Virus record (IMG/VR): IMGVR_UViG_3300011113_000415
Strand: one strand, 5' to 3'
Length of the DNA stretch: 64,000 bases
Source: a virus
Taxonomy: Duplodnaviria; Caudoviricetes
A program made the translations under genes and the position numbers. A model generated the notes under the pieces. The model saw only the letters and a program-made list of their open reading frames with translations. It ran no database searches and was not told the DNA's origin. Shown here in pieces: positions 36,610-63,600 of this stretch. Within the stretch, counting starts at the first letter, position 1; each line of letters begins with the position of its first letter.

Positions 36610-38621
36610 AAATACGTGACGTACTATTAGAATTCGCGCCTGGTGGTGGCGGTGACTCAGGTGATTACTTACGAGCCTTGGCTAGTGCCTGGTACAACGG
36701 CACATTTGATTCTGGTAGCCTGCAAAAAGGCATCAAGAGTCAACAAGATGTAGAACGCTTGTTGAATCGCGGCATTGTGTGTCCCGATGGTAAAACACGC
36801 AAACTACACATTGATTACAACTCAGACTTTGATGGTGTGGAAATCTACAGTGATGACTACTATGAACACGGTGACCTAGATGGCAATGACGGTCGCACAG
36901 GACAGCCCTGGGGACCATATGACCACATGGAGTTCAAAGACGAAGAACTAGACGAAGGTGTGGCGGAGGATACAGGTGATCAAAAGTTTGACTCAATGAT
37001 GAGCAGAATGACTGCCGAGCCAAAATATCCTGATCAGGACATGCCACCAACTAGTATTGCTGAATTGATACAATGGGCAGATAGGAACAATAAACCGTAC
37101 CATGAGTATTTTGCTCAATGGGCTAGAAGAAATGGATTTAAAAATGTAAATGATGCACTGGTATGGTTTGGTGACAATGTTGATCCATCTAATCCATGGG
37201 GACCAAAAGACTTTTTAGATCCTTTTGGCCGGCCCGCGGCAGAAGAACTAGAAGATGCTGCCAAGCACGATCCCAAGGCAGCAGAACTAATGAAGGTTTT
37301 TAGATGCTATGAAGAAATTGTATTTGATTGGCCCGATGAGTATCGTCAGATGAATATGCCAGCCTCAAGAAAAGGAACAGATGAAGGTGTGACGGAAGGC
37401 TTAGATCCTTACCGACTGGAACGCCTAGATCCACAGACACGCAGAGTGCTGACTCGCATGACCAAACACGCCGAACCCGGATCATGGCTCAGTGCCGCGG
37501 AGTCATATGCTATGCAACTGGGCCTAGAACAAAAAAATGAGAATCCACGAGCCTGGGAGCAAGAAGTTCAGTATTTTGTCGACCTTTACCGTCAATACAG
37601 TGGGCAAGGCGTGGCGGAAGGCTCCTTGAACGAATTTGCACCCGATAGCAACGACAGTGGTGAAGAAGATGCCTTACACCAGTACGCCAGAATGTGGTGG
37701 GCCGGAGATGAAGCCACACAAATGCAAATTGAACGTGCTCTAGCAAAAATGGGCTGGGAAATTGGTGAGGACGAAGGCAGTTACGACAACGGCGGTGTGT
37801 TTGTGGTACGTGCTGGCGACGTCAACGGCAATAGTTACATTTCATGGCCCGCAGAAGAACTAACAGAAGGCTCGGATCCCTGGGGTTCCCAAGGACGCTA
37901 CGTAGGCGACACAGGACCTGCACAAATATCTACCGCAGTCAAGAGAACCTCATTGAAACCAGGTGATCAAGTCATATACAAACCCACTGAACAACGTGCT
38001 CGTATAGAATCCCTGAGCCGAGACAGCACTCAAGCACGAATTCACATAGCAACTCCCATGGGTGGCCGGATTTTTAACTGCCAAACATCTGACCTAAAAC
38101 AACTGGCCAACGAGACTGAAATTGACCGACTGAAAAATCTTGCTGGTATCAAAGAAAGTCATGACCTTTGCAATGTTTGCGGACAAACACCTTGCAACTG
38201 CACACATTTGTCAGAAGAGTTTGATTTGATAGAATCAATTGTGGAGAAGATTGCTGTCCACAACGGAGTGGACGCAGACATGATCTGGGAAGATTTAGAA
38301 AGTCTCAGCGATGATGAATTGTATGTGTTTGCTGTGACCAGCGAACCCATAATGGAAGACTGGCAAAAGGTCAACAAACAGGATCGTACCTCGGGCATGA
38401 GTCGCAAGGCTGTAAAAGCCTATCGCAGAGAGCATCCAGGATCAAAACTAAAAACTGCTGTGACCACCAAGCCTTCAAAACTCAAGCGTGGTTCGAAGGC
38501 CAGCAAGCGACGCAAAAGTTATTGCAGTCGCAGTCGTGGACAAATGAAAATGCACAACATATCTTGTGCCAAAACTCCTGACAAGGCCATTTGCAAGGCC
38601 CGACGTCGTTGGAACTGTTGA
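36606..38621 (+). CDS. Modular head-type polyprotein (cassettes separated by GV[AT]E linkers; basic Cys-containing C-terminal module)
   Basis: N-term MKIRDVLLE; EGVAED, EGVTEG, QGVAEG, ELTEG linkers. Confidence 0.75.
   Translation: MKIRDVLLEFAPGGGGDSGDYLRALASAWYNGTFDSGSLQKGIKSQQDVERLLNRGIVCPDGKTRKLHIDYNSDFDGVEIYSDDYYEHGDLDGNDGRTGQPWGPYDHMEFKDEELDEGVAEDTGDQKFDSMMSRMTAEPKYPDQDMPPTSIAELIQWADRNNKPYHEYFAQWARRNGFKNVNDALVWFGDNVDPSNPWGPKDFLDPFGRPAAEELEDAAKHDPKAAELMKVFRCYEEIVFDWPDEYRQMNMPASRKGTDEGVTEGLDPYRLERLDPQTRRVLTRMTKHAEPGSWLSAAESYAMQLGLEQKNENPRAWEQEVQYFVDLYRQYSGQGVAEGSLNEFAPDSNDSGEEDALHQYARMWWAGDEATQMQIERALAKMGWEIGEDEGSYDNGGVFVVRAGDVNGNSYISWPAEELTEGSDPWGSQGRYVGDTGPAQISTAVKRTSLKPGDQVIYKPTEQRARIESLSRDSTQARIHIATPMGGRIFNCQTSDLKQLANETEIDRLKNLAGIKESHDLCNVCGQTPCNCTHLSEEFDLIESIVEKIAVHNGVDADMIWEDLESLSDDELYVFAVTSEPIMEDWQKVNKQDRTSGMSRKAVKAYRREHPGSKLKTAVTTKPSKLKRGSKASKRRKSYCSRSRGQMKMHNISCAKTPDKAICKARRRWNC
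36954..37622 (+). repeat. Three dispersed 18-bp in-frame linker repeats (36954, 37383, 37605)
   Basis: GAAGGTGTGGCGGAGGAT / GAAGGTGTGACGGAAGGC / CAAGGCGTGGCGGAAGGC. Confidence 0.8.
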
Positions 38622-38623
38622 CC

Positions 38624-39052
38624 ATGAGACAGTTGATCAATCTAGTAGAAGCAGTGGAAAAGGGCTGTCCCGTTGCCACACACGATATCACACTGAATCT
38701 CAAGAATCGACAAAAGGCCATTGACGACTATCACTACGGCCCAGCCAATCCTTTAGAACCCGGAGACTATTGGAAGCAGGCCGCCCGTCGTTGGCACGTA
38801 AGTGAAAAAATTATAAAAACAATGAAATGTGGAAATTGCGCGGCTTTTGATGCCAGTGACAGCATGCGTGAGTGTATTTCGGCGGGCATTAAAGGTGATG
38901 ACAAGAACATTGATTCAGCGGCTACTATAAATCTCAGTGACCTTGGCTATTGTAATTTTTTACACTTTAAATGTGCAGGTTCAAGATCTTGTTCGGCTTT
39001 TGTAGTTGGTGGACCTATCACTGAAAAAGATAAAGGTAAAAAGGCCAACTAA
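38624..39052 (+). CDS. Cys-rich protein with capsid-targeting-like N-terminus
   Basis: MRQLINLVEA; CGNC, YC, KCAGSRSC. Confidence 0.75.
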   Translation: MRQLINLVEAVEKGCPVATHDITLNLKNRQKAIDDYHYGPANPLEPGDYWKQAARRWHVSEKIIKTMKCGNCAAFDASDSMRECISAGIKGDDKNIDSAATINLSDLGYCNFLHFKCAGSRSCSAFVVGGPITEKDKGKKAN

Positions 39053-39808
39053 ATGATTGCTAGAGACATTGTGGAATCTAGTGGCTACAGTTTGGCAGGC
39101 AGTTACACGCCTGATCTAGTGTTCAGCAAACTGTGGCTGGCCCGTGAATTAAAACACATATTGCAACAACAGGGTATTGATTCAGTACCAGTTGCTTATA
39201 TTTTGGGTTCATGGTACAGCAATCTCAGCACAATTCTACGCAAGACAGGTGTGCCCTTAGACAAAATTGTGGATGTAGAGCGCCGGAAGGAATGGTTAAA
39301 GACAGGCCAGCAATTACAACAAGACATGAACATCACAGGTGTAGAACAAATGCAGGCCGATGCTAACGAAATAGATTATAGACAACTTCAACAGCCCGGC
39401 ATAGTAATCAATACTTCAACCAATGATATTCCTGATCACGGATGGTTTGATAATATACCGTCTGGCACCATTGTGGCACTACAAGGACGTGATCATGTGC
39501 TACCCGGTGCTGAACACACATATAATTCGCCCAACGATCTATTACAAATGTATCCCTTGGAAACTGTGCTGTATTCAGGCACCTGGAACCTAGAAGATCC
39601 AGAAACTGAGTATCAGCGTAGCATGGCAATAGGTATCAAGGGTGCAAATCAATTGCGAGAACTACAGTTCCTGGGTTCAACCTGCACCAAGGACTGCTCG
39701 GGGCATCGTGCTGGCTACAACTGGTCCAAGCGCAAAGGCCTAGTTCACGCCGCATCCTGGAGTCCCAGTTTCAACAAAGGTGCCGCCTTGGCAGTGGCCG
39801 GCAAGTAA
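39053..39808 (+). CDS. Rossmann/methyltransferase-like protein plus small C-terminal Cys module
   Basis: MIARDIVE; YILGSWYS...VDVE...DAN...INTS; tail FLGSTCTKDCSGHRAGY. Confidence 0.5.
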   Translation: MIARDIVESSGYSLAGSYTPDLVFSKLWLARELKHILQQQGIDSVPVAYILGSWYSNLSTILRKTGVPLDKIVDVERRKEWLKTGQQLQQDMNITGVEQMQADANEIDYRQLQQPGIVINTSTNDIPDHGWFDNIPSGTIVALQGRDHVLPGAEHTYNSPNDLLQMYPLETVLYSGTWNLEDPETEYQRSMAIGIKGANQLRELQFLGSTCTKDCSGHRAGYNWSKRKGLVHAASWSPSFNKGAALAVAGK

Positions 39809-40534
39809 TCACAGTCGGGTGTAAACAAAATACAATCTTTCATTGGCTTCACGTTTAAATGTATTCAATTGTAATTTATATCGTTCAGCAAATTCATTTG
39901 CTACTTCAAATGTCCAAGGAAAAATATCCACGTACGGTCCAGTTCTGTGCGGAATACCTGGATTGGCTCGTAGATAAAAGCGCCCACCTACCCGAAGCAA
40001 ATTTACACAGTGAGCAAAACGTTGTTCTATTTCATCTCGTGAATTAAAGTTGATTGAGCCCAAGGCCATGATTACATCGTACTGGTGGTTTACTCTATAT
40101 TCCAAAATATCAACTTCATAATCTGCGCAGTTATTGTACGGGTCAATTCCTACCAAATTCTGTATGCGTCCTTTGAAAGGATGATAGCCACAGCCCACGT
40201 CCAACACCCGTTCAGGATTTAATCGATTGATTTCATCCGCCAATTCCCAACCAGTGTGTTCATAGTCGCCAGTGCGCGGCTTCCATATTTCTGAAAAGAA
40301 ACGCAAGATATAGCGTTCACTCAGATCATCGGTGATTTCTCGTAATGTACCCACATAATCACAGGGCAAACTGAGTTCTGCGTCTATAGCGTCTCGGAAC
40401 TTTCTATAACGTGCCGGAGTCCAAGGTAAGTCTTGTACCTGGGTATCAGCGCCGATAGAAATATTTGCATACTTAGGTAAATTAAACGCAGATTGCAAAT
40501 TTTTTTGTAAAAGGTTAAAAATTTTTAAATTCAT
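39809..40534 (-). CDS. Class I SAM-dependent methyltransferase
   Basis: VLDVGCG, GIDP, YDVIMALGSIN; minus-strand TAAATA 40571-40576. Confidence 0.85.
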   Translation of the reverse strand: MNLKIFNLLQKNLQSAFNLPKYANISIGADTQVQDLPWTPARYRKFRDAIDAELSLPCDYVGTLREITDDLSERYILRFFSEIWKPRTGDYEHTGWELADEINRLNPERVLDVGCGYHPFKGRIQNLVGIDPYNNCADYEVDILEYRVNHQYDVIMALGSINFNSRDEIEQRFAHCVNLLRVGGRFYLRANPGIPHRTGPYVDIFPWTFEVANEFAERYKLQLNTFKREANERLYFVYTRL

Positions 40535-40586
40535 AGAAATTTTTGGTAAATAAAGTTGATTTTCAAATACTATTTAAGGAGTTTCT

Positions 40587-41564
40587 ATGTCAATCAAAAA
40601 ATTTATAATCGCCGCACTACTAGTGCCTGTACTGGCTTTTGCCTGGGAGCCTGTCAAGCCAGTCACAGTTATTATTGGCAACACACCCGGCGCTGGAAAT
40701 GAAATGGCCTTTAGAAAACTGGCCGAAATTGTACAAAAGCGAAATCCCAACTTTGTTTATGTTGTGCAAAACATTCCTGGTGCAGATTCAGTTATTGCCA
40801 ACAATAAATTTTTGGAAGCGCCCAATGACGGATATACTATCAACTTGCCCAGCCACATGAGCAGTTATGTCACAAATGATATCTGGGAAAAGAATTTAAA
40901 GAAGTACAATTATGACAGTTTTGTAGACGTGCTGACCATGGGCAAAAGTCCACTGGTCTTGGTTGCATCAGTAAAGAGTGGAATTGAAACCCCACAAGAC
41001 TTTGTGAAGTATATACAATCTGGAAGAAACATCAATATAGCCATTGGTGGTGGCGCACATCGCACAGCATTTGAATATTTGATGGAAAAAGGCCGGGGCA
41101 ATCGAGACGCTGTTCGTTCGATCAAATTCAATGGTCCTGTGCCTGCGCTACAAAGTGTTGGACAGTGGGATGGACGAACTGGAACTGAATTTGGTATCAT
41201 GCCTATCGCTGTGGCCAAAGCATTGATTGATGCAGGCAAAGTAAAACCCATTGGATTTACAGGCACTAGGAAAATGGCACAATTCCCAAATGTACCGCTA
41301 TTAAACACAGTTGCTCCGGGCATCAATGTGTATGCGGCTTGGTCAATCGAATTGCCGCCAGGAACTAACAAGGACATTGTAGAATGGTATCAACGTGAAT
41401 TTTCAACTGCAATTCGTTCAGCCGAATATAGAGAATACACAGATGCCAATGTTATATTCTACTCTGAAGATGAACTCACACCAGCAGGTCTTAAAAAGCA
41501 CATGGATGAATTACGTGCGTCATTTATTCCTGTGCTGAGTCGAATTGATTTAAGTAAAGAATGA
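40587..41564 (+). CDS. Tripartite tricarboxylate transporter substrate-binding protein (TctC/Bug family)
   Basis: Signal peptide; PVTVIIG..PG......R.LA...VVQNIPGA...APNDGYT. Confidence 0.85.
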   Translation: MSIKKFIIAALLVPVLAFAWEPVKPVTVIIGNTPGAGNEMAFRKLAEIVQKRNPNFVYVVQNIPGADSVIANNKFLEAPNDGYTINLPSHMSSYVTNDIWEKNLKKYNYDSFVDVLTMGKSPLVLVASVKSGIETPQDFVKYIQSGRNINIAIGGGAHRTAFEYLMEKGRGNRDAVRSIKFNGPVPALQSVGQWDGRTGTEFGIMPIAVAKALIDAGKVKPIGFTGTRKMAQFPNVPLLNTVAPGINVYAAWSIELPPGTNKDIVEWYQREFSTAIRSAEYREYTDANVIFYSEDELTPAGLKKHMDELRASFIPVLSRIDLSKE

Positions 41565-42181
41565 AATATATCTTTGTGGCCGGCGCACCAGGCTCTAAAT
41601 GGTCGAGTGTAGTTAAAAATATCTATTATTCACCAGATATTGACAGATCTGATTATTCAGATGCACGTACCTATTATCACGATGCGTCAGGAAAATACGA
41701 CTTGATGCATCTGGGTGCATATTTTGACCCTGGAATGGAATTTGGCAATTTCTTTGATCAATTGGATCAGTACACAAAAGAACAATGTGAAACAGAATTT
41801 GATAGACCATTTTTGGGCACAGGTATACGCATTTTAAAAAGTCACGTGTTTGCCAATCATATTGATTATATCAAACAGACCTGGCCCGATTGTCCTATAG
41901 TGCTAGTGCATCGTGACGATGACGCTTGTTTGGGCTGGTGGGTCAAGTGCGGACATTTTGACATCACATATCCATTGTATCACGATTATTATCAAAACCT
42001 ACGAACCATGGCCGGTATAATTCGAGATCAAAATGAAGGTATACAACAGGCCGCATGGGATTATCCACGCAGACAGCCTCAGACCAATCGCGAATTGGCC
42101 AGGATTTTGGCCATTGCAGAACCGCCTGAGGGCTACGAACAACACTATATACAACACAACATTCGAGTGAGAGTAATATGA
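41561..42181 (+). CDS. P-loop/sulfotransferase-like protein
   Basis: YIFVAGAPGSKWS; LKSH; IVLVHRD. Confidence 0.5.
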   Translation: MKYIFVAGAPGSKWSSVVKNIYYSPDIDRSDYSDARTYYHDASGKYDLMHLGAYFDPGMEFGNFFDQLDQYTKEQCETEFDRPFLGTGIRILKSHVFANHIDYIKQTWPDCPIVLVHRDDDACLGWWVKCGHFDITYPLYHDYYQNLRTMAGIIRDQNEGIQQAAWDYPRRQPQTNRELARILAIAEPPEGYEQHYIQHNIRVRVI

Positions 42182-42828
42182 ATTCCAGTTGGGACATCAG
42201 CCGAGCATTAAGTACCTATCATTTTGATAGCCAAATCATTGATCAACCCCAAGATGTTGTACACTATTTGGGTCGCATCGAACCCACGTGGCTGGCAGAT
42301 CTTGAGGATATTGTGGCCAATTCCAGGCCTGCAACCTGGGCCACACGTGGTTACAAAGGCGAAGGCATTGAAGCACCGTCAGAAGAACTAGAACGAGAAC
42401 TGTATGATTTGACACGACACGGCATGAGTACAGATTTGCCAATCACACACCTAAACTGGCGCATACCCGAAAGTCTGCAACGCATCAGCGACGCATTTGC
42501 CTTGGATTCTTGCATGGATCGCATACATGTTCAGCGTCCCGGAGAAGTGTGGAATAGACACATTGACAAATTGGCCAAGTGGGCGCCAGATCATCCTGAC
42601 ACTGTCATGCGAATCATGATACAACTCACAGACTGGCAGCCAGGGCAGTTTTGGGAATACGGCAATTATCACTACAATCACTGGCGTGCCGGAGATGTCA
42701 CAACATTTGACTGGGCCAACATTCCGCACTGCACAGCCAATGCTGGACATCATGCCAGAGTCACACTTCAATTGACCGGAATTAAAACAGCCGCTACCAT
42801 GGATTATCTAGCACAATTGCCGCTATGA
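42178..42828 (+). CDS. 2OG-Fe(II) oxygenase-like (double-stranded beta-helix) protein
   Basis: HxD (RHID), distal H (PHCTAN), RVTLQLT. Confidence 0.7.
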   Translation: MNSSWDISRALSTYHFDSQIIDQPQDVVHYLGRIEPTWLADLEDIVANSRPATWATRGYKGEGIEAPSEELERELYDLTRHGMSTDLPITHLNWRIPESLQRISDAFALDSCMDRIHVQRPGEVWNRHIDKLAKWAPDHPDTVMRIMIQLTDWQPGQFWEYGNYHYNHWRAGDVTTFDWANIPHCTANAGHHARVTLQLTGIKTAATMDYLAQLPL

Positions 42829-43448
42829 AGACTTTGTTGATCATGACAGGGCCGCAAGGTTCGGGCAATCACATGTGGTCAAAAATCTTTGCCTTGCATC
42901 CTGAAGTTCACGGCTGGCGGGCCCTGCTGGATCAATATTGGATAGGTCACGACCAAGAACCTTTTGCCAAGTACTGGGCCAATCCTGATTTATTAGAGAG
43001 TTTTGAATGGCAACACCGCTACTATGTGACGTCTATCAGTGTGCCTTACATGAACAATGGCACTGCAACCAAGCCCAACATTGTGCGTTTTGCCGCCTGC
43101 GCCATGGGAGCAGGATTGCGAGTCAAGATTGCTATCTTGGGACGTGATCGCAATATTGTCGATTATCAACAAATACGGGTGCGCGGAGCCAGCACACATG
43201 AACAGGCCTTGGCTGAATATCAAAAGTTGACATCTTGGCAACCCACATATTTGAGTTATGAATTGTTGTACATGTATGGCAGTGACTATTTGCGTCGATT
43301 GAGTGATCAATTAGAATTTCCAATTGCCTACAATGATCCCAGACTAAAAGAAATCATGGCCGAGGACACAAACAGTAAATATTTTACGGCTATTGATTAT
43401 CACCCTACAGATGATTTAGCACGCTACGCTTCAAGGAAACACCGATGA
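42825..43448 (+). CDS. P-loop/sulfotransferase-like protein
   Basis: MTGPQGSGNHMWSKIF; GRDRN; YLSYELL. Confidence 0.55.
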   Translation: MKTLLIMTGPQGSGNHMWSKIFALHPEVHGWRALLDQYWIGHDQEPFAKYWANPDLLESFEWQHRYYVTSISVPYMNNGTATKPNIVRFAACAMGAGLRVKIAILGRDRNIVDYQQIRVRGASTHEQALAEYQKLTSWQPTYLSYELLYMYGSDYLRRLSDQLEFPIAYNDPRLKEIMAEDTNSKYFTAIDYHPTDDLARYASRKHR

Positions 43449-44287
43449 AAACCACCCGACGCATATTGATAATGGGCCTGCCAGGAGCAGGCAAAACTTA
43501 CTTTGCCGAACGACTAAAAAAATATTTAGAAGATCATATCAAACCCATAAATGAACACAGTCTGCGACCCATTGCAGATGCACAAGTCTCTGTGACCTGG
43601 TTCAATGCTGATGACATACGCAAAAAGTACAATGACTGGGATTTTTCACACGAAGGTCGCATACGTCAAAGTATCCGCATGCGAGACCTGGCGGATGAGT
43701 CTGGTTCTGATTATGCCATTGTGGACTTTGTGGCACCGCTAGTGGAAATGCGCAACAATTTCAAAGCCGACTGGACCATCTGGATTGACACTATAGAAAA
43801 AGGTCGCTTTGAAGACACAAATAAGATATTTGTGCCACCCGAAGTTTATGATTTCCGCATTACAGAACAGGCCGCAGAAAAATGGTCAGAATTTGTAGGC
43901 GAGCATATTGTGGAAAATAGACGAAGACCCGTTTTTGACTGGCAAAAGGAAACTGTGCAGATGCTGGGCCGCTGGCAACCTTGGCATCAAGGACATCGTG
44001 CCTTGTTTGAACGTGCTATTGCCAAGACCGGACAGGTTGTGATACAAATACGTGACTGTCAGGGCTGGCAAGGAACCAATCCCTTTGCCATAGAACAAGT
44101 TAAATATTTCATACAGCGGGACCTAGATCCTGTATATCAAGGACAGTATGAAATTCAAGTTGTTCCTAATATTGTTAATATCACTTACGGTCGCGATGTC
44201 GGTTATCGTATCGAACAAGAGTCCTTTGATGAACAGACTACCAATATCTCAGCGACCAAGATAAGAAAGGCCATGGGCCTTGAATAA
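43445..44287 (+). CDS. Adenylylsulfate-kinase-like domain fused to HIGH-family nucleotidyltransferase
   Basis: GLPGAGKT, ADDIR, DFSHEGR, VDFVAP, FVPP; C-terminal GRWQPWHQGH...ISATKIR. Confidence 0.8.
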   Translation: MKTTRRILIMGLPGAGKTYFAERLKKYLEDHIKPINEHSLRPIADAQVSVTWFNADDIRKKYNDWDFSHEGRIRQSIRMRDLADESGSDYAIVDFVAPLVEMRNNFKADWTIWIDTIEKGRFEDTNKIFVPPEVYDFRITEQAAEKWSEFVGEHIVENRRRPVFDWQKETVQMLGRWQPWHQGHRALFERAIAKTGQVVIQIRDCQGWQGTNPFAIEQVKYFIQRDLDPVYQGQYEIQVVPNIVNITYGRDVGYRIEQESFDEQTTNISATKIRKAMGLE

Positions 44288-44504
44288 GTACCACGTGAGA
44301 TTCAATACCAAGCACAATGGTTCTGAACTAGTATGGCGTGTGTTTGAAAATGGTATTGAACACCTAGCCAAAGATGTAAGATTGGTGGGCGAAACCTTTA
44401 CAGAATGCACACACGAACATGGCGAAACCAAATGGAATATCGCCTGTGCGGGCCGTTTAATATGGGTAGATAACGTAGCGGTAATTGTGACCGGCAAGGA
44501 CTAG
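44280..44504 (+). CDS. Hypothetical protein
   Basis: 74 aa, operon end. Confidence 0.6.
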   Translation: MNKYHVRFNTKHNGSELVWRVFENGIEHLAKDVRLVGETFTECTHEHGETKWNIACAGRLIWVDNVAVIVTGKD

Positions 44505-44541
44505 CCAACCCACGAGACCCTGACTGCAACTAAATAGTTGA

Positions 44542-44985
44542 ATGTGGATCTTACACTTTCTTCCTGATTCAGTTATTGTATGGTTTTGCAATATCCTGCT
44601 CCTAGCGGGCATTGTGGCCACTATTGCAGGTTTTTTTGCACATCGCATTCCTGGACTTTGGCAGTATCAACTAGCATTCAAAATAGGTGGCATTTTGCTG
44701 TTGGTCTTGGGTGTTTATTTCCGTGGCGGATTGGCCGTGGAACAGGAATGGCGCGAGCGTGTGGCCGAAGTTGAAAAACGATTGCAAGTGGCCGAAGCAC
44801 AGGCTGCCGAAGCCAATCAACAAATAGAAAACAAAACACAACAACGAGTCACACAAATTCGTCAGCGCATGACCTACATCAAACAGTATGTGGATCGAGA
44901 AGTTGTACGATACAACGATCAATGCCAGATTCCTCAGGCATTTGTTCGTGCTCACAATCAAGCCGCGGAAGCACCTGCCAAATGA
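44542..44985 (+). CDS. Putative inner-membrane spanin (Rz-like)
   Basis: TM helices then coiled coil, C-terminal Cys; TAAATA 44531-44536; followed by a lipoprotein. Confidence 0.7.
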   Translation: MWILHFLPDSVIVWFCNILLLAGIVATIAGFFAHRIPGLWQYQLAFKIGGILLLVLGVYFRGGLAVEQEWRERVAEVEKRLQVAEAQAAEANQQIENKTQQRVTQIRQRMTYIKQYVDREVVRYNDQCQIPQAFVRAHNQAAEAPAK

Positions 44986-45245
44986 AATATGTTTTGCTTG
45001 CTCTAGTGTTGTCGGGCTGTAGCACAGTGGTTCCTGTCACAGCCAAATGGCCTGATCCTCCAGGCAAAGGCGCAATGACAGCATGTCCTCATTTGCAAAA
45101 ATTAACAGATGGCGCAAAATTAAGTGATGTTGCAAACACAGTGTCGGTAAACTATAACACCTATTATGAGTGTGCAGTCAAAGCAGATGCCTGGCAGGAG
45201 TGGTATCAAGTTCAAAAGCACATATTTGAAGGTGCTGGTCGATGA
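44982..45245 (+). CDS. Putative outer-membrane lipoprotein spanin (Rz1-like)
   Basis: MKYVLLALVLSGC lipobox; Pro-rich; ATGA overlap. Confidence 0.75.
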   Translation: MKYVLLALVLSGCSTVVPVTAKWPDPPGKGAMTACPHLQKLTDGAKLSDVANTVSVNYNTYYECAVKADAWQEWYQVQKHIFEGAGR

Positions 45246-46228
45246 AAATCTCTGATGTGTTGACAGAAGCAGTGCCTGTGTCGGCACCATCAAATGTGGG
45301 TCGCGACTACATCAACATGCTGAACTTTGTCAAAAGCAGTGGCCTGGAAAACGTGCCGCAAGATCAGCAGGTGGCAGTGGCCTTGTTTAAAGAACTGCAA
45401 AAGCAACAGCAAAAGAACACACAACTAGGGCGTGAACTCAGTGCCGCAGAGCGGCGCATTGATCAAGCCATGCAAAGCGATGACCTGCGTGATCAAGAAT
45501 TGGCCTCACACGAAGCCGAACTTGAACGTGAACGTGGTGAAATTGAAAAGCAACAACAAAAAATGGGTCAAATTGATCAAGCCTATGCAGGTCGTGCGCA
45601 GGCCAGTGAGCGTCAAATGCAGGCCTTGACAACACAGTTGGCTCAATTGAAAGACAAACCAGGTGTGGACAAAAGCACCGCAGAACAATTGCAAAATCAA
45701 ATTGAGAAATTGCGAAAAGAAGGCATTGGTCAAGACAAATTAAAAGAACTGCAAAAGAATATTGAATCAATTCAAAGCATGCAACAGGTAGATGATTCGG
45801 TAATTCGAGACCTGGTTGCCAAAATTCAGTCTGCAGAGTCTATTGCCGCTGACGCAGTCCAAACCAAACAAAAATTAAGTCAGGACCTGGAACTCAAGAC
45901 CCAGGCAGCCTTGGACCAAGTGGCACAAATGCGACAGGATTTGCAAAGATTACAACAAGTTGAGAAGAAAGTGGCCAGCCTTGATAAAGAACTAAGTGAT
46001 CTGGAAATTGAATACAGCGACACTACTAAATCGGTCATGGATCTTGAACAAAATGTGTATCGCATAGACACTGCAATGACGGCAAGGAATCAGGCAGCCG
46101 CTGCCAATATAGCACGACAAATAAAACAAAATCCTCAGGCAGCGGCAACACAAGTACAAAAAACCCCGGCGTTAGAGCCATTGGCCGAATCGAGTTTTCG
46201 CAAATTAATTCGATGGGCCACCAAATAA
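45242..46228 (+). CDS. Long coiled-coil protein with capsid-targeting-like N-terminus
   Basis: MKISDVLTEA; Gln/Glu/Leu heptads. Confidence 0.7.
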   Translation: MKISDVLTEAVPVSAPSNVGRDYINMLNFVKSSGLENVPQDQQVAVALFKELQKQQQKNTQLGRELSAAERRIDQAMQSDDLRDQELASHEAELERERGEIEKQQQKMGQIDQAYAGRAQASERQMQALTTQLAQLKDKPGVDKSTAEQLQNQIEKLRKEGIGQDKLKELQKNIESIQSMQQVDDSVIRDLVAKIQSAESIAADAVQTKQKLSQDLELKTQAALDQVAQMRQDLQRLQQVEKKVASLDKELSDLEIEYSDTTKSVMDLEQNVYRIDTAMTARNQAAAANIARQIKQNPQAAATQVQKTPALEPLAESSFRKLIRWATK

Positions 46229-46241
46229 AAAGGAAAAACAA

Positions 46242-47852: not shown

Positions 47853-47873
47853 ATACATCACAAGGAAGAAATC

Positions 47874-48434: not shown

Positions 48435-48435
48435 T

Positions 48436-51582: not shown

Positions 51583-51611
51583 TTGCTGGCCCAGCCTTAT
51601 TCATGTATAAT
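51583..51611 (+). promoter_or_regulatory. sigma70-type promoter
   Basis: TTGCTG-N17-TATAAT. Confidence 0.65.
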
Positions 51612-51645
51612 CAATTGTATGACAACCTCTTCAGGACACAATCAC

Positions 51646-53919
51646 ATGCAACACAACCCAGAAATCGAAAGTATTATTGAAAACGCGGTCAAAATCGCCC
51701 GCACATGGCAACACGAATATGTGTTGACCGAACATGTATTGTTGAGTCTTGTCAGACACGAACCATTCCGTCGTTGCTTGACCAAGTTTGGCACCGACGT
51801 GGCCATGCTAGAAACTGAACTGTGTGCTTACTTAGACAGTTGCCAAAGTCTAGTATCAGACGACCCAGATATCACACCAAGAAAAACCACTGCCCTGGAA
51901 CGCACATTCAATCGTGCGCTGACCCAGGTGTTGTTTACCGGGCGGCGAGCAGTGACCACAATTGACCTGTATCTGGCGCTCATGGGCGAAACCAACAGTC
52001 ACTCACACTACTTCTTGCTCAAGTATGGTGTGACCAAACAGGAGTTTGTGGAGTTTTGGCAGGCCAACTACAATCAAGGCGAAGCCCACAAACTGTCGGA
52101 CCGCCAGGCCACTGAAATCCTAGATGAACATTGCGTGAGTTTGACTGCCCTGGCCAAGAAAGATCGCCTGGAACCCTTGATTGGTCGTGCAAAGGAACTG
52201 GAAGAAATGATTGCTGTGTTGGCTCGACGCTTCAAAGCCAATGTGCTCATGGTAGGCGATCCTGGTGTGGGCAAAACCTGTATTGTGGAAGGCCTGGCAC
52301 AGGAAGTTGCCGCTGGGCGTGTGCCTGAGTTCCTGAAAGATCATGAAGTGTGGAGCCTGGAAATAGGCAGTTTGTTGGCAGGAAGCAAATATCGTGGAGA
52401 GTTTGAAGAAAAGTTCAAGATGGTGATACAGGCCTTGGAAAGTAAGAAGAAGTGTATCTTGTTTATAGACGAAGCACACACCATGCAGGGTGCTGGAGCA
52501 GGATCAAACGGTGCATTGGACTTTGCCAACATGCTGAAACCTGCTATCACTAGAGGCAGTTTGAAAGTTGTGGCATCAACCACCTGGGAAGAGTTCTATG
52601 AAAGTTTTGAAAAGGACCGTGCGCTGATGCGTAGATTCTACCGCTTGGCCATAGATGAACCTGACCGTGACACCACAGAAAAGATTCTGATCGGTCTTTC
52701 TCCCCGCCTTGAGACCTTTCACAATGTGCTGATCGATACCGAAGCCATGACAGCCGCAGTGGACTTGAGCGGTCGCTACATACACGACAAAAAGAATCCT
52801 GACAAATCAATAGACTTGTTGGATGCGGCCTGTGCTAGAGAGCGTGTGAAAGATCAAGGTCAACTCACAGTCACACGTGACTTGATCATGGCTCAAGTGG
52901 CCCGTGTGACCGGTGTGCCAGTGGATCGCTTGCAAAACGAACGTTCGACCAAGATTGTGGATCTTGAATCAAACATCAAGCAGAAGTTGTACGGTCAAGA
53001 TGCCGCTGTAGATTCAGTACTGGAACGTGTATATATCAACTTTTCCGGCATCGGCAATCCCAATCGACCAATGGCTTCATTCTTGTTCTTGGGCCCAACA
53101 GGTACAGGCAAAACAGAATTGGCTCGACTGTTGGCCTCAAACTTGGACATGCACTTGCTGAAATATGACATGAGTGAGTATCAAGAGCGTCACACTGTAT
53201 CCAGCCTAATAGGTGCTCCTCCTGGCTATGTGGGCTTTGAAGATGGCAACATTGGTGGCGGCAAATTGATTTCAGATGTGAGCAGGAATCCATTCAGCAT
53301 AATCTTGTTTGATGAAATTGAAAAGGCTCATCCTGATGTCAGCAATATCTTGTTGCAGATGCTGGATGAAGGACACATAACTTCCAGTAATGGCAAACGA
53401 GTTGATGTCAAGAACTGTATTATCATCATGACATCAAACTTGGGTTCACAGGATTCTGAAGCCAACAACATTGGATTTGGCAGTTTTGAAAAGACAGGCG
53501 AAGATGATCGAGCACTTAAAAACTTTTTCAAACCCGAACTACGTAATCGTATTGATCACGTCTGCAAGTTTGCCAAGTTGGACACCCTGGCCATCAAGAA
53601 AGTTGTGGTCAAGTTTGTGGACGAACTCAAGACAAGTTTGCATACAAAAGGCATACGCCTCGTGCTATCCGAACCAGTCATTGACCTGCTTGCTCTCAAA
53701 GGCTATGATTCGAAGATGGGTGCGAGACCACTCAGCCGCAAGATTGACGAGTTGATTCGTGTGCCGTTGAGCAAGAAGATCTTGTTTGAGAGACTTGCCA
53801 ACTGTGATGTGGTGGCCACTATAGAGGATGATGCTGTGCATTTTGCAATCACTCCAAGATCGGATGCAGTGACCACTATAGGTGATGATGGTATTGTCAG
53901 AATTGTCAATGAAGTTTAA
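51646..53919 (+). CDS. clpA: ClpA-type Hsp100 AAA+ ATPase
   Basis: Clp N-domain (HEYV..EH.LL), GDPGVGKT, DEAH, GPTGTGKT, DEIEKAH, IGF loop, GARPL; start MQHNP after AGGA. Confidence 0.92.
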   Translation: MQHNPEIESIIENAVKIARTWQHEYVLTEHVLLSLVRHEPFRRCLTKFGTDVAMLETELCAYLDSCQSLVSDDPDITPRKTTALERTFNRALTQVLFTGRRAVTTIDLYLALMGETNSHSHYFLLKYGVTKQEFVEFWQANYNQGEAHKLSDRQATEILDEHCVSLTALAKKDRLEPLIGRAKELEEMIAVLARRFKANVLMVGDPGVGKTCIVEGLAQEVAAGRVPEFLKDHEVWSLEIGSLLAGSKYRGEFEEKFKMVIQALESKKKCILFIDEAHTMQGAGAGSNGALDFANMLKPAITRGSLKVVASTTWEEFYESFEKDRALMRRFYRLAIDEPDRDTTEKILIGLSPRLETFHNVLIDTEAMTAAVDLSGRYIHDKKNPDKSIDLLDAACARERVKDQGQLTVTRDLIMAQVARVTGVPVDRLQNERSTKIVDLESNIKQKLYGQDAAVDSVLERVYINFSGIGNPNRPMASFLFLGPTGTGKTELARLLASNLDMHLLKYDMSEYQERHTVSSLIGAPPGYVGFEDGNIGGGKLISDVSRNPFSIILFDEIEKAHPDVSNILLQMLDEGHITSSNGKRVDVKNCIIIMTSNLGSQDSEANNIGFGSFEKTGEDDRALKNFFKPELRNRIDHVCKFAKLDTLAIKKVVVKFVDELKTSLHTKGIRLVLSEPVIDLLALKGYDSKMGARPLSRKIDELIRVPLSKKILFERLANCDVVATIEDDAVHFAITPRSDAVTTIGDDGIVRIVNEV

Positions 53920-54553: not shown

Positions 54554-54563
54554 ATACTGCACT

Positions 54564-55105: not shown

Positions 55106-55110
55106 TCATT

Positions 55111-55545: not shown

Positions 55546-55559
55546 CGCTAAATACCAGT

Positions 55560-56600
55560 ATGAAACAACTGGTCATAATGCCGGGCGGATTCCACCCTTT
55601 CCACGCAGGACATCTTGCACTTTACCAAGCCGCCAAAGAAGCGTTCCCTGGCGCCGACGTCAAAGTGGCTGCCACCAATGATACCAGTCAGCGGCCATTT
55701 CCATTCAAGATAAAAGAAAAACTGGCTCAGTTGGCAGGTGTTTCGCCCGGAGACTTTTATCAGGTCAAAAGCCCATTTCGTGCTGAAGAGATTACAAAAA
55801 ATTACACGCCCGAAGATACTGAATTGATATTTGTGCGTTCCGAAAAAGACGCCAACAAGCCTCCACAAGCAGGCGGTATTAAAAAGAATGGCGAATTGGC
55901 TTATTTGCAACCACTTGAAGGACAAGATGTTCTAGAGCCCATGAACCAACATGCCTACATGGCCTACCTGCCCACAGTGGAGTTTGGACCTGGCATGACG
56001 TCAGCCACAGAGATTCGTACTGCCTGGCCCACACTCAACGATAAACGCAAGACTGCTCTAGTAATGAGTCTGTATCCTGACACACAAAAGAATCCCCGAC
56101 TGGCTGCCACAGTTGTAAAGATGTTGGACACAGCAATTGGTACCGAACAACTCAATGAATTTTTACCTGCACTAGGTGCGGCTATTGGTGGAGAACTAGC
56201 GGCTGCTACAGAACTTGGAACAATGGGCACGCTAGGTATGCGTGTGGCTGGTCATAAGATTGGTAGCGATATTGAAGACCAGTTAAACAACAGTGACGTA
56301 GAAGAAACACGTATCATTGATCCCAAACGCATTGATGTGTTCTATCGCCCTGTTCAAAACAGTCGTGGCCGACGTGTGGTGGCCAAGAATGTACCCACCT
56401 CAGCATTGGATGCACTATTGGCCAAACTCAGCGACAAGTTTGGTGTACGTGACACTGACTTTGAGTGGACTGCCGCAGAGAAATCAGTCAGCGAAGACTA
56501 TGTGGAAGAAAAGTGGAGTCAAAAGTACAAGCGGAGCATCAACTGTGCTCACCCTAAAGGCTTCAGTCAACGGGCTCACTGTGCAGGTCGCAAAAAATAA
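55560..56600 (+). CDS. HIGH-family nucleotidyltransferase with appended C-terminal modules
   Basis: PGGFHPFHAGH, TSATEIR; then LNE/VEE-delimited segments ending KWSQKYKRSINC...HC; TAAATA 55549-55554. Confidence 0.75.
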   Translation: MKQLVIMPGGFHPFHAGHLALYQAAKEAFPGADVKVAATNDTSQRPFPFKIKEKLAQLAGVSPGDFYQVKSPFRAEEITKNYTPEDTELIFVRSEKDANKPPQAGGIKKNGELAYLQPLEGQDVLEPMNQHAYMAYLPTVEFGPGMTSATEIRTAWPTLNDKRKTALVMSLYPDTQKNPRLAATVVKMLDTAIGTEQLNEFLPALGAAIGGELAAATELGTMGTLGMRVAGHKIGSDIEDQLNNSDVEETRIIDPKRIDVFYRPVQNSRGRRVVAKNVPTSALDALLAKLSDKFGVRDTDFEWTAAEKSVSEDYVEEKWSQKYKRSINCAHPKGFSQRAHCAGRKK

Positions 56601-56649
56601 CGGTATGTGTTAAACTCGTTAAATATTCTACAATTTTGACGAGGACCTT

Positions 56650-57588
56650 ATGATAACCCAAACCGGAACAACACCCCCAACACCCCCAGAAACAATGTCA
56701 ACTGATGTGCCATTAGCACCTCAAGAAACACCAACTGGACAACCACAAAATCAAATTCAAGTTAACCTTGATTATTTGAGAACAACTAGGGTCCATCTAT
56801 GCATGCCTTGTTATGGTGGTATGCTCACTGAATCAACATTCATGAGTTATATCAAGTGGGCCAATACTGCTCGTCAACTGGGTATCGATTGGACAGTAGA
56901 AACCATGACCAATGAGTCATTGATCAGCCGTGCCAGAAACACACTCACCGCCAAGTTCTTGCACACCAAAGAATCAACGCACCTGATGTTTATTGATGCT
57001 GACATTGGTTGGGAACCCTGGCACCTGTTGGCCATGTTGAATCACAATGTGGATGTGGTAGGCGGTTTATACCCTATGAAATCATTGCCGGTCAAATGGT
57101 GTGTGAATGGCATTCCGGGCACTCCACAAGATGATCCTTCGGGTCTAATTGAAGTGACCAAGACCGGTACAGGCTTTTTGCTGATGAAACGTGAAGTGTT
57201 TGAAAAACTCAATAGTCACCCGGCTGTGAAGCCTTTTACCAATGACATTGGCCTGGACCCTGTACTCAATCCCTACATGAAAACCTACTTTGACACAGCC
57301 GTGCGTGAAAACCGCTACTACTCAGAAGACTGGACCTTCTGTGAAAATTGGCGTGATCTAGGTGGCCAAGTGTGGGTGGATCGTCGTGTGTTGCTGAAGC
57401 ACACAGGTACCTATGTGTTTGACTATCAAACCCAGGACAAACTGTATCAAGACCTGCACGAAATCGCTACCAACAATCAGATTGCTGCCGCTGCCGCACA
57501 AACAGCCGCGGCGCCTGTTGAAGCCAAGGTCATCGCTACCAACAAAAAAAGCGATAAAAAAGCAGATAAGAAGGCCAAAGCAGCCTAA
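56650..57588 (+). CDS. GT-A fold glycosyltransferase-like protein
   Basis: MPCYGG, ESLISRARN, FIDADI (DxD), GTGF, SEDW.FC; GAGGA SD. Confidence 0.8.
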   Translation: MITQTGTTPPTPPETMSTDVPLAPQETPTGQPQNQIQVNLDYLRTTRVHLCMPCYGGMLTESTFMSYIKWANTARQLGIDWTVETMTNESLISRARNTLTAKFLHTKESTHLMFIDADIGWEPWHLLAMLNHNVDVVGGLYPMKSLPVKWCVNGIPGTPQDDPSGLIEVTKTGTGFLLMKREVFEKLNSHPAVKPFTNDIGLDPVLNPYMKTYFDTAVRENRYYSEDWTFCENWRDLGGQVWVDRRVLLKHTGTYVFDYQTQDKLYQDLHEIATNNQIAAAAAQTAAAPVEAKVIATNKKSDKKADKKAKAA

Positions 57589-57602
57589 CGGTAAATACAC
57601 TC

Positions 57603-60600
57603 ATGAACCTCCATGAGTTAGACCGCTACAAACTTAGTGACGCTGTAAAATTCAATGCTCGTTTGAACCCTCGACTGTGGGGCAAAGATGAGCATTTGAA
57701 GCCCCAAGTGCGCGATGCACTGATGAAAATTGCAGATGATTTCCGCGAAAGTCTGGGCGTTAAAGATCTTGATTTAAAAGACATCACACTTTCAGGATCA
57801 AACGCCGCTTACACTTACACTCCCAATTCAGACATAGATCTACACCTTGTGGTGGATATACCTGATGACCCTGTGTATCGTGAATTGTTTGATGCCAAAA
57901 AGTACGCATATAACAATCAGCATAACATAAAGATTAGTGGCTATGATGTTGAACTGTATGTGCAAGATGTAGACCAGCCACATGTGACTCAAGGTGAATA
58001 CAGTTTGATCGACAACGACTGGATTCAAGTGCCACGTCGTCAACGTGCTGATGTTGTGGATCAAAGCACACGGAGCAAATACCAAGATCTCAAACAACGT
58101 ATCAAGGCGGCTATCAAAACTGAAGATCATGACGTCATGGCCAGTTTGATGGCCAAGATCCGACAACTGCGTCAAAGCGGTCTTGATCAACACGGCGAGT
58201 TTGGTCCTGAGAATCTTGCGTTCAAGATGTTGCGCACACAGGGCTATATCCAAAAATTAGTTGATGCTAGAAACGCTGCCAAGGATCAAGAACTCAGCAT
58301 TGATGAACGTGTGAAGCCGCGTGTGACTTATGGCTTTGCCACTGAATCAAAAGACAGTTTGTCGGACACCATCAATCAGTTTGCCCGTAGTTGTATTGAT
58401 TACTTGGGTATCAAGAAGGCGCCTGAAATCAAGTTGCATACTGATACCAACTGGAGTGAGCAGACAGGTTCGTTTGGTCAGTATGAGCCTGAAACCAATG
58501 TGTTGCACTTGGCCACATCAGGACGTCACACACTAGACATCTTAAGAACCATGGCTCATGAGTTCACACATCGCAAACAAGCAGAAAAACAAAAACTACC
58601 TGCCAATGCAGGTGAGACAGGCAGTCCTTACGAAGACGAAGCCAATGCCATGGCAGGTCGCATCATGCGTCACTGGGCAGAGAAGCATCCTGAGATGTTC
58701 GCTCATGTGCCCTTGGAAGAAGCATCAGGATACATTCCTACTAAAAAGCAAGCAAAGGATCCACGCTTTGTGATGGCTCTCACAAAAGATGTGCGTCCAG
58801 GGCAGACAGGCAAAGAAGCCAATAAACTGGGTTTGCAAACTGATGCCCAAGGTCATCCTGCATTACTAACTGCCCGACTGAATGAAAGTCTTGCTGTAGA
58901 AGATGACCGGTATGGCAATCAAGATCCCACTGGTCCAGAGTCACCACCCAAAATGCCGGACGGCACAATCAAAGTTGATGTAAGTGACATCTATGACTGG
59001 TACAAGATTGGACAAAAGATCAGTGACCTCAAGAGCATTGACAAAAAGACTCTGGGCAAAGGTCCTCCCAGCACTGTGTTGGCATTTGGTTCAGAAGAAC
59101 TTGAAAACATGTACAGCAATGCCTTGATCAACTTGGGCTTGAAAACACATGACCTAGACGAGCCCGGCGAAGAAGACAGACCTGGTTCGGGTCAAGACAT
59201 TGACGAAGCCTTGATTACTGAAACCATTGATGACGCATTGTTTGAAATCAAAATGTCTCCCTCCAATCTGCGCCAAGAAGCAGCCAAGACCGGTGCACTT
59301 GCCGGCATGGAATTTGAAATGATTGTGCCCAATACCGAGGGCGGTGACGATGGAGACCTAGAACCCGACTATGATTACGACCAACGTTGCCGTAGTATAC
59401 AAGACGCATATGACTTTTTCTACGATGGTGACTTCAATGGTCGTAGAGATGTCCAAAACCTGCGTGAAAAGATGCAGGAAGATTATCTTGAGTGGCTGGA
59501 CGAAAAGATCCAAGAAGAATGGGATAGTCAAGGTGAAGAATACATTGCGGAATGGGTCAAGAACAATGTGGATGAATCCGAATGGAATCCAGATGATCTA
59601 GAAGGCGATGCCAGAAACGAAGCACTAGAAGAATATTCTGTAAATGTTCATGCTGATCCTGCCAGTCGTGATTATCAATCAGCCTACGAAGAGTTCCGCG
59701 AAGAACATCAGGAAGATTATGATGAAAGTGACTGGTTGGATGATGCAGATCTAAGCCGCATGAGCGAAATTGAAAATGCCTACAGCATGAGTTGGCCACA
59801 TTGGCGATCACAGGGCGGTGGCGAAGCCAGCATTGAAGATGTGGCGCAGGAATTTGAAAACGCCATTGGGCGTGATGTTCGTGCCAGTGGCAACTATCAC
59901 TCAGGCAGTGTGATACGTCCTAGTCCAACTCAAATACGCTATGTTGTAGAACCTGACGGCAGTTTAGAACCAGATGATCCCAACGATCAAGGCCTGGAGT
60001 TTGTGAGTCCGCCACTACCCATAGACGAAATACTTAGTGACTTGAACAAGGTCAAACAATGGGCCAAGGAGTACGGCTGTTATACCAATGATTCAACTGG
60101 CCTGCACATCAACATTTCAGTGCCCAACTACAGCAGAGAAAACCTAGACTTTGTGAAACTGGCTCTGCTGATGGGTGACAAGTATGTGTTAGATGCTTTT
60201 GGACGTTCAGGCAATACCTATGCTAAGAGTGCGTTTGACATTGTGAAACGTCATGTGCGTGACAATCCTGAAGAGGCCGCCAAGTTGTTAGACAAGATGA
60301 AAGGCAACCTGGATCAACTAGCCACCAAGGCCATTCACTCAGGAATTACTTCAAAGTATACAAGTATCAACACCAAAGACGGCCACATTGAATTCCGTAG
60401 CCCTGGTGGTGACTGGTTAGACGAGAACTTTGATCAAATTGAAAATACCTTGTTGCGTTTCACAGTGGCCATGAGTGCGGCCCTGAATCCTGAAATGTAT
60501 CGTCAAGAATATTTGACCAAGTTATACAAATTGTTGAGCGACGGCAACAAAGATGTGGACACTATCAAGTATTTCTCAGACTATGTGGCCGGCAAGATTC

Positions 60601-63600
60601 CCCGGGCGGCTCTGCGTAGTTTTGTCAAGCAAGCGCAGTTAGAACGTAAACTCAAGCGTGACCCTACAGGCGGTGAACGATACTGGTGGCGTGTTTATAA
60701 AGAAGGTCGCAATGCCAAAAACGGTGCTGAGATTGAACTGGTGGCCACTTCGGAACAAGAAGCCAAAGACAAAGCCGCTAAAGAGTGGGCGACAACATCC
60801 ACACGCGGCTTTGATGCTGTGCCTGTGAGACCGTTTGATCAAACACAATCAACAGGGCCCACACTCAACGGCCGCCCTAGCAATCCTGATGGTGGCTGGG
60901 TAATATCACCAGAAAATGATCGCAGCCGTGTAGTGTATAGATTTGCGGCGGCCAGTTTTGACGATGCTAATATAGTTCGCAGACAGTGGGCCGCTGACAA
61001 CGACGGAGTGTGGATTGTTCAAAGAGATACCAACAGAACCTTGGGTCAGCCTTCTTCATCACAAGAGCAATACCGCACAGGAACCTATGAATTGTTTGAT
61101 AGACGCACTGGTGAGGCTGTCCCTGACAGTGAATTCCCTGCTCGCAATCAATCAGAAATGAACACAAGATTAGATGATTATATCAATCATGGTAGTCACG
61201 GCATGGACACAATAGATGCTCGCTTGTTGTTTGGCGTTCGCCCTGTGGTGGCACCAGCAGACGAACCCGGAGACGTACGAGTTCTTGACAATGCTTTGCG
61301 ACCCACTGGTCCCGGACCTTGGGAAATTTACAATAGAGCCACTGGCAATTCGGCCGCCACACTCAGAGTAGACGGCCAACCCATAACCGATCGTGCTCAA
61401 GCACAACGCATGGCCATGGGCAGTATCGCCGCTGAAAATTATGACCGCTATGGTGTAAGAACTATAGGTACAGGCAGTAGAGCCAACATAGGCACACAAA
61501 CTGACATGGAAAATCGCTTGGGCCTGCCTAGTCAGTCAGCCACAGCCAACTATGCAGTTGTGGATCGTCAAACTCTTGACCCGGTGTTTAGATTCCATGC
61601 TGACGATCGCAGAGCGGCCAATAGAATGTATGGCGAGTGGTTGGCAGCCGCTGGCTTGCCACAAACCACCGAAGACTACGGATTCCAAGAGATTCGCCCA
61701 GAGATTCCCGAAGTGCCCTTGGACATAGAGCAGAACTTGCCGAGCCGGACCGATGGCCGCAATATTGACTACTCATTCAGAGACTTGTTTGGCACCAATG
61801 CCACAGCAGATCAACAGCAAGGTGGCATTGTGGATGTGGCTCCTGATGTGGCACAGAACTTTGGCGGTGAGTTCTCGGGACAGTGGCGCATCTTGGATGG
61901 CGATACCGGCACTGAACTGTTTAGATTCCGTAGTGCTGATCCTAGTCAGGCCGAAGCCAATCGCCTGGCCCGTTTGTGGTTACAACAGAATGCACCCGAT
62001 TCAGACTTTAGAGAAATAGAAGTGGTACCGGTCATGTCAGAAGGTATAGCAGAAGGCAGTTTAGAAGAATTAGCCAATACCAGTCTCAAAGTCAAAGAAC
62101 CCAAAAACTTTGTCAACACAAATGACCGGAAACAAGTGACCTATAAAGTTATGAAGTTTAAGTCTGGCAAAGACACATACTTGATAAACTTCACTGTGAA
62201 AGGTCCACCTGCTTTTGGTCGGAAACAGAACTGGAACGCAGTAAATGTATCGTTTGGTGTGAGAGAACCACAGGACGATTACAGTTTTGGTGATGAAATC
62301 AATACTGATTTGACTGCCAAAAATAAAAATCAATTTTTAATTTATTCAACTGTGATTAACGCTATTCGCAAGTTTATCACAGAATACAACACAGAGATTG
62401 ATGAAATTATCATGCAGGGTGCTGGTGAAAGACAAGAAGCCATGTATCAACGTTTTTTCCAGTCAGCGGGCAAATATTTCCCAGGATGGCACTATGATGG
62501 CAAACACAGTCTAGTGCGTGATGTTCCTAGACAAACAGGAAAGAAAGTTCGAGAGCAAGGTGTCACCGAAGGTGTTAATGATTATCTATGGCACGGATCT
62601 AAATCTAAACATGATATTTTATACCCACAGCAAGCAAACGATACCGGTGGTAAAAAAGAAAGTAATAAAAATGCTGTATACGCTACTCCTAGTGCCCGAG
62701 TTGCTATAGCAATGGGACTGACTACACCTGGCTCAGACACAGGCATGTTTCCTAATGACCCGCAAATGGTACTATTCAAGGGCGGTATTAGAAAAGGCCA
62801 AATGGTATACCTGCACAAGGTGCCTAAAGATTTATTCATAAAACACAATGACCGAGAATGGTATTCCAAGCCGGGTGTCAAAGAAGTTAAGCCTATAGAA
62901 GTAGTAACAGTTCCTGTGGATAAATGGTTGCATTTGATTAGGCAGGCAACACCACAAGATTTAGAATTACAGAAAAAGAATTTGAAGAAGCAAGGTATAG
63001 CAGAAAGTTCAACCAAAAACTTTGTTAATGGCGGGTATGCTAAAGAATTTCTTGGAGAATATCCTAGTATAGAAACTACACTGGGCGAAGCCAACGATTA
63101 TACTTCTCATCCTGATCTTGTAGCATACGATAAAAAACTTGAAAAAAAATTACACCGTGATATTGACGTCACTCAAGGCCAAAGAAAAAATCTTGTGCCA
63201 CTAGATTATGATCAAGAACCCGAGTGGAGTGATGTTGAGTATGCCCAAGATTACACTGGTGGCAGTTTGGATATAAATGATTACCTGCATAGACAATATA
63301 GAAAACAAACCAAGCCCGAAGAAATAAAAGAATTTCTGAAAAAAATCCAAGCACTGGACCGATTGTTGGCCAATCACAAATTACCACAACAAATTGTGGT
63401 ATACACAGGATTAAAACAAAGTCCATCTGATGCCTGGGAAACATATGGTGCAGATGTTTCTAAACCTATTAGACTGCACTTGCCAGCATACACTTCTACT
63501 ACTACCCGACTTAAAACTGCGTTGGAACGTGTTGAAGACGAGGTTGTGCAAGTTCCCCGAGCAAGGCACAAACCAAGAAATAAAGACGCTCCAAAAGACG

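Follow-up and report, generated by a model that had tools for sequence, protein, structure and literature searches.

Linker copies and modules in the two genes

The DNA analysed here, hereafter called the window, is a stretch of 64,000 nucleotides from IMG/VR virus record IMGVR_UViG_3300011113_000415 (Duplodnaviria; Caudoviricetes), and forms part of a contig of about 335 kb from a giant, T4-like freshwater phage. It contains two genes, both on the plus strand, whose products are chains of modules joined by a conserved 18-bp in-frame linker, which is the subject of this work. The first gene, P0001 (36606..38621), codes for a putative cargo polyprotein of 671 amino acids with the leader MKIRDVLLE|F, followed by approximately six modules and a C-terminal DUF6321 domain. 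The second, P0002, starts at 57603 and is 3'-open at the end of the window. The core of its giant product (57603..62039) comprises a nucleotidyltransferase (NTP_transf_2), an HEFTH zincin (HExxH type, with a weak match to DUF6782) and an amidoligase (Amidoligase_2); near the end lies an Alt-like ADP-ribosyltransferase (ADPrib_exo_Tox), and a further domain has an Arr-like fold. Since it combines several unrelated effector enzyme domains in one large protein, P0002 is a polyvalent protein. Most of the modules have no confident Pfam family.

An earlier note on this DNA had described six copies of the peptide [EQ]G[VI][AT]E[GDS] in two genes. A scan of all six frames of the window returned exactly these six, at 36954, 37383 and 37605 in P0001 and at 62040, 62556 and 62991 in P0002; a stricter DNA pattern gave four matches where 0.07 were expected. 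The details read from the letters were also correct: all six copies start with SAAGGY, the three in P0001 keep GTG-RCG-GA at synonymous positions, and two of those in P0002 share an identical 14-mer (62041-62054 and 62992-63005).

The first linker of P0001, EGVAED (36954..36971), marks a junction which relatives show without a linker, as DEA|TGDQKF. At the second, EGVTEG (37383..37400), homology ends cluster at residue 264 and relatives carry alternative downstream modules. After the third, QGVAEG (37605..37622), comes SLNEFAP, which resembles the vestige of a leader. In addition, a half-linker, LTEG, is present at 37860..37871; between the same pair of modules relatives have LTEGVAEG.

In P0002 the first linker, EGIAEG (62040..62057), stands in place of the stop codon of the core. 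It is followed by cassette A (62058..62555; residues 1486-1651), which has a weak DUF6934 match, the linker QGVTEG (62556..62573), cassette B (62574..62990; residues 1658-1796), the linker QGIAES (62991..63008), and cassette C (63009..63821), the Alt-like ADP-ribosyltransferase, which in a related protein (P0122) lies directly after the core. A degenerate linker, ENVADE (63825..63842), precedes module D (SLTEIAPMP...). The modules after 62040 had been described as more AT-rich than the upstream part, and this holds for cassettes A, B and C (GC 0.384, 0.396 and 0.413, against 0.477 for the core). The GC content of third codon positions is 0.447 in the core, 0.36, 0.34 and 0.30 in the three cassettes, and 0.55 in module D; overall GC is back up to 0.54 in the last module of the window.

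Cassette B was modelled with AlphaFold as a compact domain with a predicted local distance difference test (pLDDT) score of 79 and a predicted template modelling (pTM) score of 0.73, both of its linker ends falling below a pLDDT of 50. Foldseek against the PDB gave weak best matches to the rifampin ADP-ribosyltransferase Arr (E 0.03) and to Tpt1. Cassette B also has invariant W-H-G-S and Y-A-T motifs, and is a candidate for a further ADP-ribosyltransferase (H-Y-E type) beside the Alt-like one.

Mosaic relatives and breakpoints

The relatives of the window derive from lake and river metagenomes, contigs of 330-370 kb among them. No near DNA match to the window was found in cultured phages, where protein matches are limited to single domains. 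Within the relatives there are more than 200 peptide-defined linker copies, and these join unrelated modules. P0001 has 517 mosaic homologues, most of which are 75-90% identical across 17-50% of its length. Homology ends cluster at residues 117-125, 264 and 421-423 and homology starts at residues 327-334, all coinciding with the linkers and the half-linker LTEG. Among 120 homologues of P0001 we counted 98 strict linker copies, nearly all [EQ]GVAEG, situated between varying small modules. One relative consists of a chain of twelve modules, each of 35-150 residues and each ending in QG[VM][AE]E. The IMG/VR search with P0001 matched mostly DUF6321 relatives which lack linkers.

The giant protein behaves in the same manner. 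Of 94 homologues, 32 terminate with ...PVMI-stop exactly at residue 1478, where the first linker of P0002 begins; longer homologues continue past this residue with E[SG][VIL]xE and then assorted modules. Thus BLAST homology starts and ends cluster at the linkers in both proteins, and together with the model of cassette B this agrees with the observation of the earlier note that each copy sits at a domain boundary.

The same junctions carry different sets of cassettes in different relatives. At least 15 other proteins contain cassette A at different positions, with a linker on each side. Cassette B is likewise linker-bounded at many positions in other proteins; in P0030, a protein of the P0001 type, a cassette 94% identical to it follows directly after the P0001-type N-terminal module, and therefore the two gene families share cassettes. 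Because module D lies directly after the core in several relatives, cassettes A, B and C look like an insertion. A low-depth contig from a different study (X11) matches 61905-62045 at 94% and then diverges into sequence which aligns to the start of cassette C; it appears to represent natural variation in which cassettes A and B are missing and the join lies inside the first P0002 linker. On another contig (L164, 7910-8209, minus strand) a stand-alone open reading frame (ORF) of 99 amino acids corresponds to one polyprotein module between two linkers, and is located 55 kb from the polyprotein gene of that contig.

At a finer scale, an identical module pair was found with or without a 12-nt unit encoding VAEG. 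This unit is tandemly duplicated at 1532-1561 of contig L101, giving EGVAEGVAEG. Within the linker, GAAGG forms a direct repeat of 5 bp on either side of 7 bp, and slippage could explain gain or loss of the unit.

In order to map breakpoints in the DNA, we compared pairs of linkers which share 60 nt on one side only, the linker itself spanning offsets 0-17. With the upstream flank shared (47 pairs), divergence begins at +10 to +20; with the downstream flank shared (43 pairs), it begins at -7 to +6. All 90 one-sided homologies therefore break within or beside the 18 bp, as would be expected of the cassette-exchange site that the earlier note had proposed.

Two other variable places in P0002 were encountered. 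Residues 442-545 (window 58881-59231) are missing in most homologues and near the C-terminus in several others; the borders of this segment are the degenerate sites LAVE|D and LITE|T, which are not strict linkers. At 61696-61734, in the core, 37 nt are replaced by 223 other letters in a contig from another sample, and this spot is also not at a strict linker.

Silent-site uniformity of the linker DNA

From 163 related loci, a definition of the linker by peptide only gave 72 distinct contexts, in which the modal DNA is CAAGGTGTGGCGGAAGGC. When the linker codons were compared with the codon usage of the same ORFs, Ala was found to be encoded by GCG in 55 of 69 linkers, this being the rarest Ala codon (background 0.08). 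Similarly, Val is GTG in 58 of 67 (background 0.28), the first Gly is GGT in 62 of 72 (0.43) and the last codon, Gly, is GGC in 45 of 61 (0.38). At least 120 IMG/VR stretches contain the exact 18-mer, and the bias was replicated with 63 further linker copies from 120 such stretches.

Since related sequences inflate tests of this kind, shared descent was controlled for with the syntenic N-terminal module, in which the top-codon fraction averages 0.67 over the conserved four-fold codons. We also considered 2350 pairs of linkers with flanks unrelated on both sides: a fraction of 0.30 of them agree in every letter of the GVAEG 15-mer, where codon usage predicts 0.007. The synonymous positions thus go beyond ordinary codon bias, as had been suggested from the copies in the window.

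With up to two mismatches allowed, the 16-mer core has 135 copies in 931 kb of related loci, all of them on the gene strand, in one frame and within ORFs, against 0-1 copies for reversed and shuffled controls. A chi-like hotspot or other generic DNA site was rejected for the reason that the motif is never out of frame, antisense or between genes. That modules are gained, lost and moved through recombination between linkers is indicated by three features: the uniformity of the DNA, its restriction to a single frame and the fact that breakpoints fall on the 18 bp.

A different explanation is that the linker is a protease site only, and that its DNA identity is due to recent common descent, the linkers having been copied along by recombination in longer homologous modules while selection retained only those junctions which fall at domain boundaries. 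The peptide, which fits the protease rule [LIV]-x-E, agrees with this, as do those orthologous conserved codons which are equally uniform (top-codon fraction up to 0.94) and the lack of significant homogenisation within genes. We nevertheless think it unlikely. Sets of five orthologous conserved codons are identical at a mean of only 0.07, with none of 2000 draws above 0.20, compared to the 0.30 given above for linkers with unrelated flanks; furthermore, new module adjacencies require a crossover at the junction, which is where every mapped break lies.

Alternatively, the silent positions might be fixed for a reason at the level of RNA or translation, on top of the protease site, with recombination there being incidental. 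Candidates would be a ribosome pause at the end of a domain, caused by the rare GCG and the Shine-Dalgarno-like AAGGTG or GGAAGG, or a signal for RNA processing. A single rare codon and purine-rich runs of GG are indeed present at every domain boundary, and the absence of out-of-frame and antisense copies would suit such a signal. Against this, most of the linker codons (GGT, GAA, CAA) are common, and the exact placement of the breakpoints is left unexplained. There is also no start codon at a consistent distance downstream, on which ground an internal translation start after the linker was rejected. This explanation is doubtful.

Leaders and the head protease

In T4, the internal proteins and Alt enter the prohead with capsid-targeting leaders, which gp21 then removes (PMC5694885; PMC3012670). 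The linker peptide described here fits the rule of T4-type prohead proteases, [LIV]-x-E, and the clade encodes such an enzyme, so that the earlier note was probably right to see a protease site in it. A complete relative of 344 kb (G001) shows the T4 order of head genes, namely those for an acidic protein, a protease (Peptidase_S77, E 6e-24), a scaffold like gp22 and the capsid protein gp23 (E 1e-97). Among the best 120 homologues listed for this protease, identity is 88-96%.

Leaders ending in [LIV]-x-E are seen at the start of both genes of the window, as MKIRDVLLE|F in P0001 and MNLHE in P0002, the likeness to T4 being one of sequence only. The motif TAAATA, which resembles a late promoter, is just upstream of P0002 and of the operon containing P0001, and P0001 is directly downstream of two genes matching PHROGs annotated as "virion structural protein". 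Relative G001 has no linker; here (L008, 3884-8218) the modules correspond to individual genes, which are tightly packed and overlap, and each of which starts with MRxxEF[IV]TE, resembling the T4 capsid-targeting sequence. Among these genes are a DUF6321 gene and one coding for a 663-amino acid protein with a repeated internal segment.

Four unrelated ORFs of the window also have leaders that resemble the T4 capsid-targeting sequence: 21752-22294 (MREHINLVE|A), 38624-39052 (MRQLINLVE|A), 39053-39808 (MIARDIVE|S) and 45242-46228 (MKISDVLTE|A). TAAATA is just upstream of some of them. Between the two polyprotein genes, at 51583-53919, lies a large gene for a Lon-like ATP-dependent protease (phrog_4871, E 2e-235).

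Proposed role of the linker

We consider it probable that the linker is a site for the T4-type head protease within capsid-targeted cargo polyproteins, and that it doubles as a microhomology for recombination. The cargo-polyprotein part of this proposal is based upon the fit to [LIV]-x-E, the protease of the clade, the leaders, the late-promoter-like motifs and the separate leader-bearing module genes of the relative. Both genes would then code for precursors of head-packaged proteins which are injected along with the DNA. The N-terminal T4-like leader would bring the chain into the prohead, where a protease of the T4 gp21 type would cut after Glu at each linker, G-[VI]-[AT]-E|[GDS], so that each module would become a small protein or enzyme in its own right, the two ADP-ribosyltransferase-like domains among them. 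In the DNA, the nearly identical 18 bp at hundreds of junctions would offer the phage's own recombination system a homology patch which is always in frame. Through crossovers from linker to linker, whole modules might be inserted, deleted, rearranged or transferred, each accompanied by its cut site, and the silent positions could be kept uniform by repeated exchange, by selection for exchange, or by both.

Several points weigh against this proposal. Cleavage, packaging and recombination through microhomology are all inferred. The S77 protease is known from G001 and the clade and not from this phage's own genome. The X11 variant rests on one 39-nt overhang of a single low-depth contig, aligned by eye. 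The compared sequences are related, so that p-values from codon usage are inflated, and the orthologue control is only a partial remedy. A greater likeness of copies within one gene, as suggested for the window, is not significant across the family (0.735 within genes vs 0.685 between phages, p about 0.09), and local gene conversion is therefore not evident. Finally, for homologous recombination to be efficient in T4, a length of 16-18 bp is short; PMC2839356, citing Singer 1982, refers to patches of less than 50 bp.

It is also conceivable that the linker is cut by another protease, such as the HEFTH zincin of the giant protein or a host enzyme after injection, or that it is not cut and is a structural spacer. 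A HExxH domain does lie within P0002, and autoproteolysis by such embedded domains has been proposed (PMC5512222). We hold this to be about as doubtful as an explanation at the RNA level, since polyproteins of the P0001 type have no peptidase domain of their own and since the motif agrees with the Glu-specific rule of the S77 family; for a passive spacer, six near-invariant residues would be needless.

The earlier note had also compared the linker-bounded modules to an integron-like array. The part of this claim that concerns in-frame recombination stands, in that modules are inserted, lost and swapped at the linker. A site-specific mechanism is unsupported. Were a dedicated phage enzyme (a recombinase, nuclease or homing-type system) to use the 18 bp as its recognition site, cutting and rejoining the DNA at that point, the arrays would form an integron of protein modules, in which the head-protease site would already provide for release. 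The extreme uniformity of the 18-mer across many phages, the precision of the breaks and the tandem duplication in L101 are in keeping with such an enzyme. No recombinase match was found among the 20 window proteins scanned, which do not cover every ORF, and no integrase or nuclease gene was seen beside the arrays of the window in a search that was not exhaustive. The 18-mer has no self-complementary arms of the kind found in attC when read directly, and is confined to coding DNA, one strand and one frame. In addition, cassette shuffling at short conserved sequences is known from T4-type phages, where it involves no dedicated recombinase (PeSLs, PMC2839356). A dedicated enzyme is thus very improbable.

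Comparison with known systems

The closest parallel to the proposed head-protease site is found in the T4 internal proteins IPI-III and Alt (PMC3012670; PMC5694885). Common to both are short N-terminal leaders ending in [LIV]-x-E, here judged by resemblance of sequence, and a diverse cargo including an Alt-like ADP-ribosyltransferase, which is injected in T4 and presumably so here. A T4-type S77 protease in the clade and the late-promoter-like TAAATA complete the likeness. In T4, however, each cargo has its own gene with one leader, whereas here the cargos are chained in one frame by an internal linker conserved in its DNA, and modules move between genes.

As recombination joints, the linkers resemble the PeSL cassettes and the PeSL-like elements at internal protein (IP) loci of T-even phages, in which short conserved sequences flank variable cassettes (PMC2839356). 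For the latter elements that paper cites Repoila 1994. Arbiol et al. (2010) likened PeSLs to integrons and saw no dedicated recombinase (PMC2839356). Unlike the linker, PeSLs are intergenic, are about 100 bp in length and carry a promoter and a stem-loop; the linker has 18 bp, is inside the ORF and also encodes a peptide signal.

The multi-effector, presumably injected product of the giant ORF is like the polyvalent proteins which Iyer et al. (2017; PMC5512222) described from phages and conjugative elements, raising the possibility of recombinational cassettes in them. Their paper differs in proposing processing by embedded metallopeptidases and not at a head-protease site; it describes no conserved linker, and the word "linker" occurs in it 0 times. 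Nor are linkers mentioned in a jumbo-phage overview, and a full-text literature search for the linker peptide gave nothing relevant.

In polymorphic toxins such as Rhs and CdiA, a conserved pre-toxin motif marks the border of the swappable effector domains; in Rhs this motif is also the place of a cleavage site, and cassettes occur on their own as well. These are secreted bacterial toxins with immunity genes and one variable tip. The short conserved motif at the border of swappable domains and the stand-alone cassettes are shared with the phage polyproteins, which differ in that many modules are chained, immunity genes are lacking and delivery is, as we suppose, by the capsid. Polymorphic toxin systems are mentioned in PMC5512222.

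The components are thus known, namely capsid-targeting sequences with gp21 processing, the shuffling of cassettes at conserved joints, and polyvalent or polymorphic effectors. For a dual-coded in-frame 18-bp junction we found no published description. If the proposal is correct, one short sequence would be read twice, as the cut site of a peptide and as the crossover point of DNA, and these phages would evolve their repertoires of injected effectors by exchanging whole domains in frame at a standard joint. It would account for how extremely mosaic these proteins are among giant phages of freshwater, and it predicts which fragments enter the host. Perhaps it also suggests a natural route by which foreign cargo could be loaded into, and released from, T4-type capsids.

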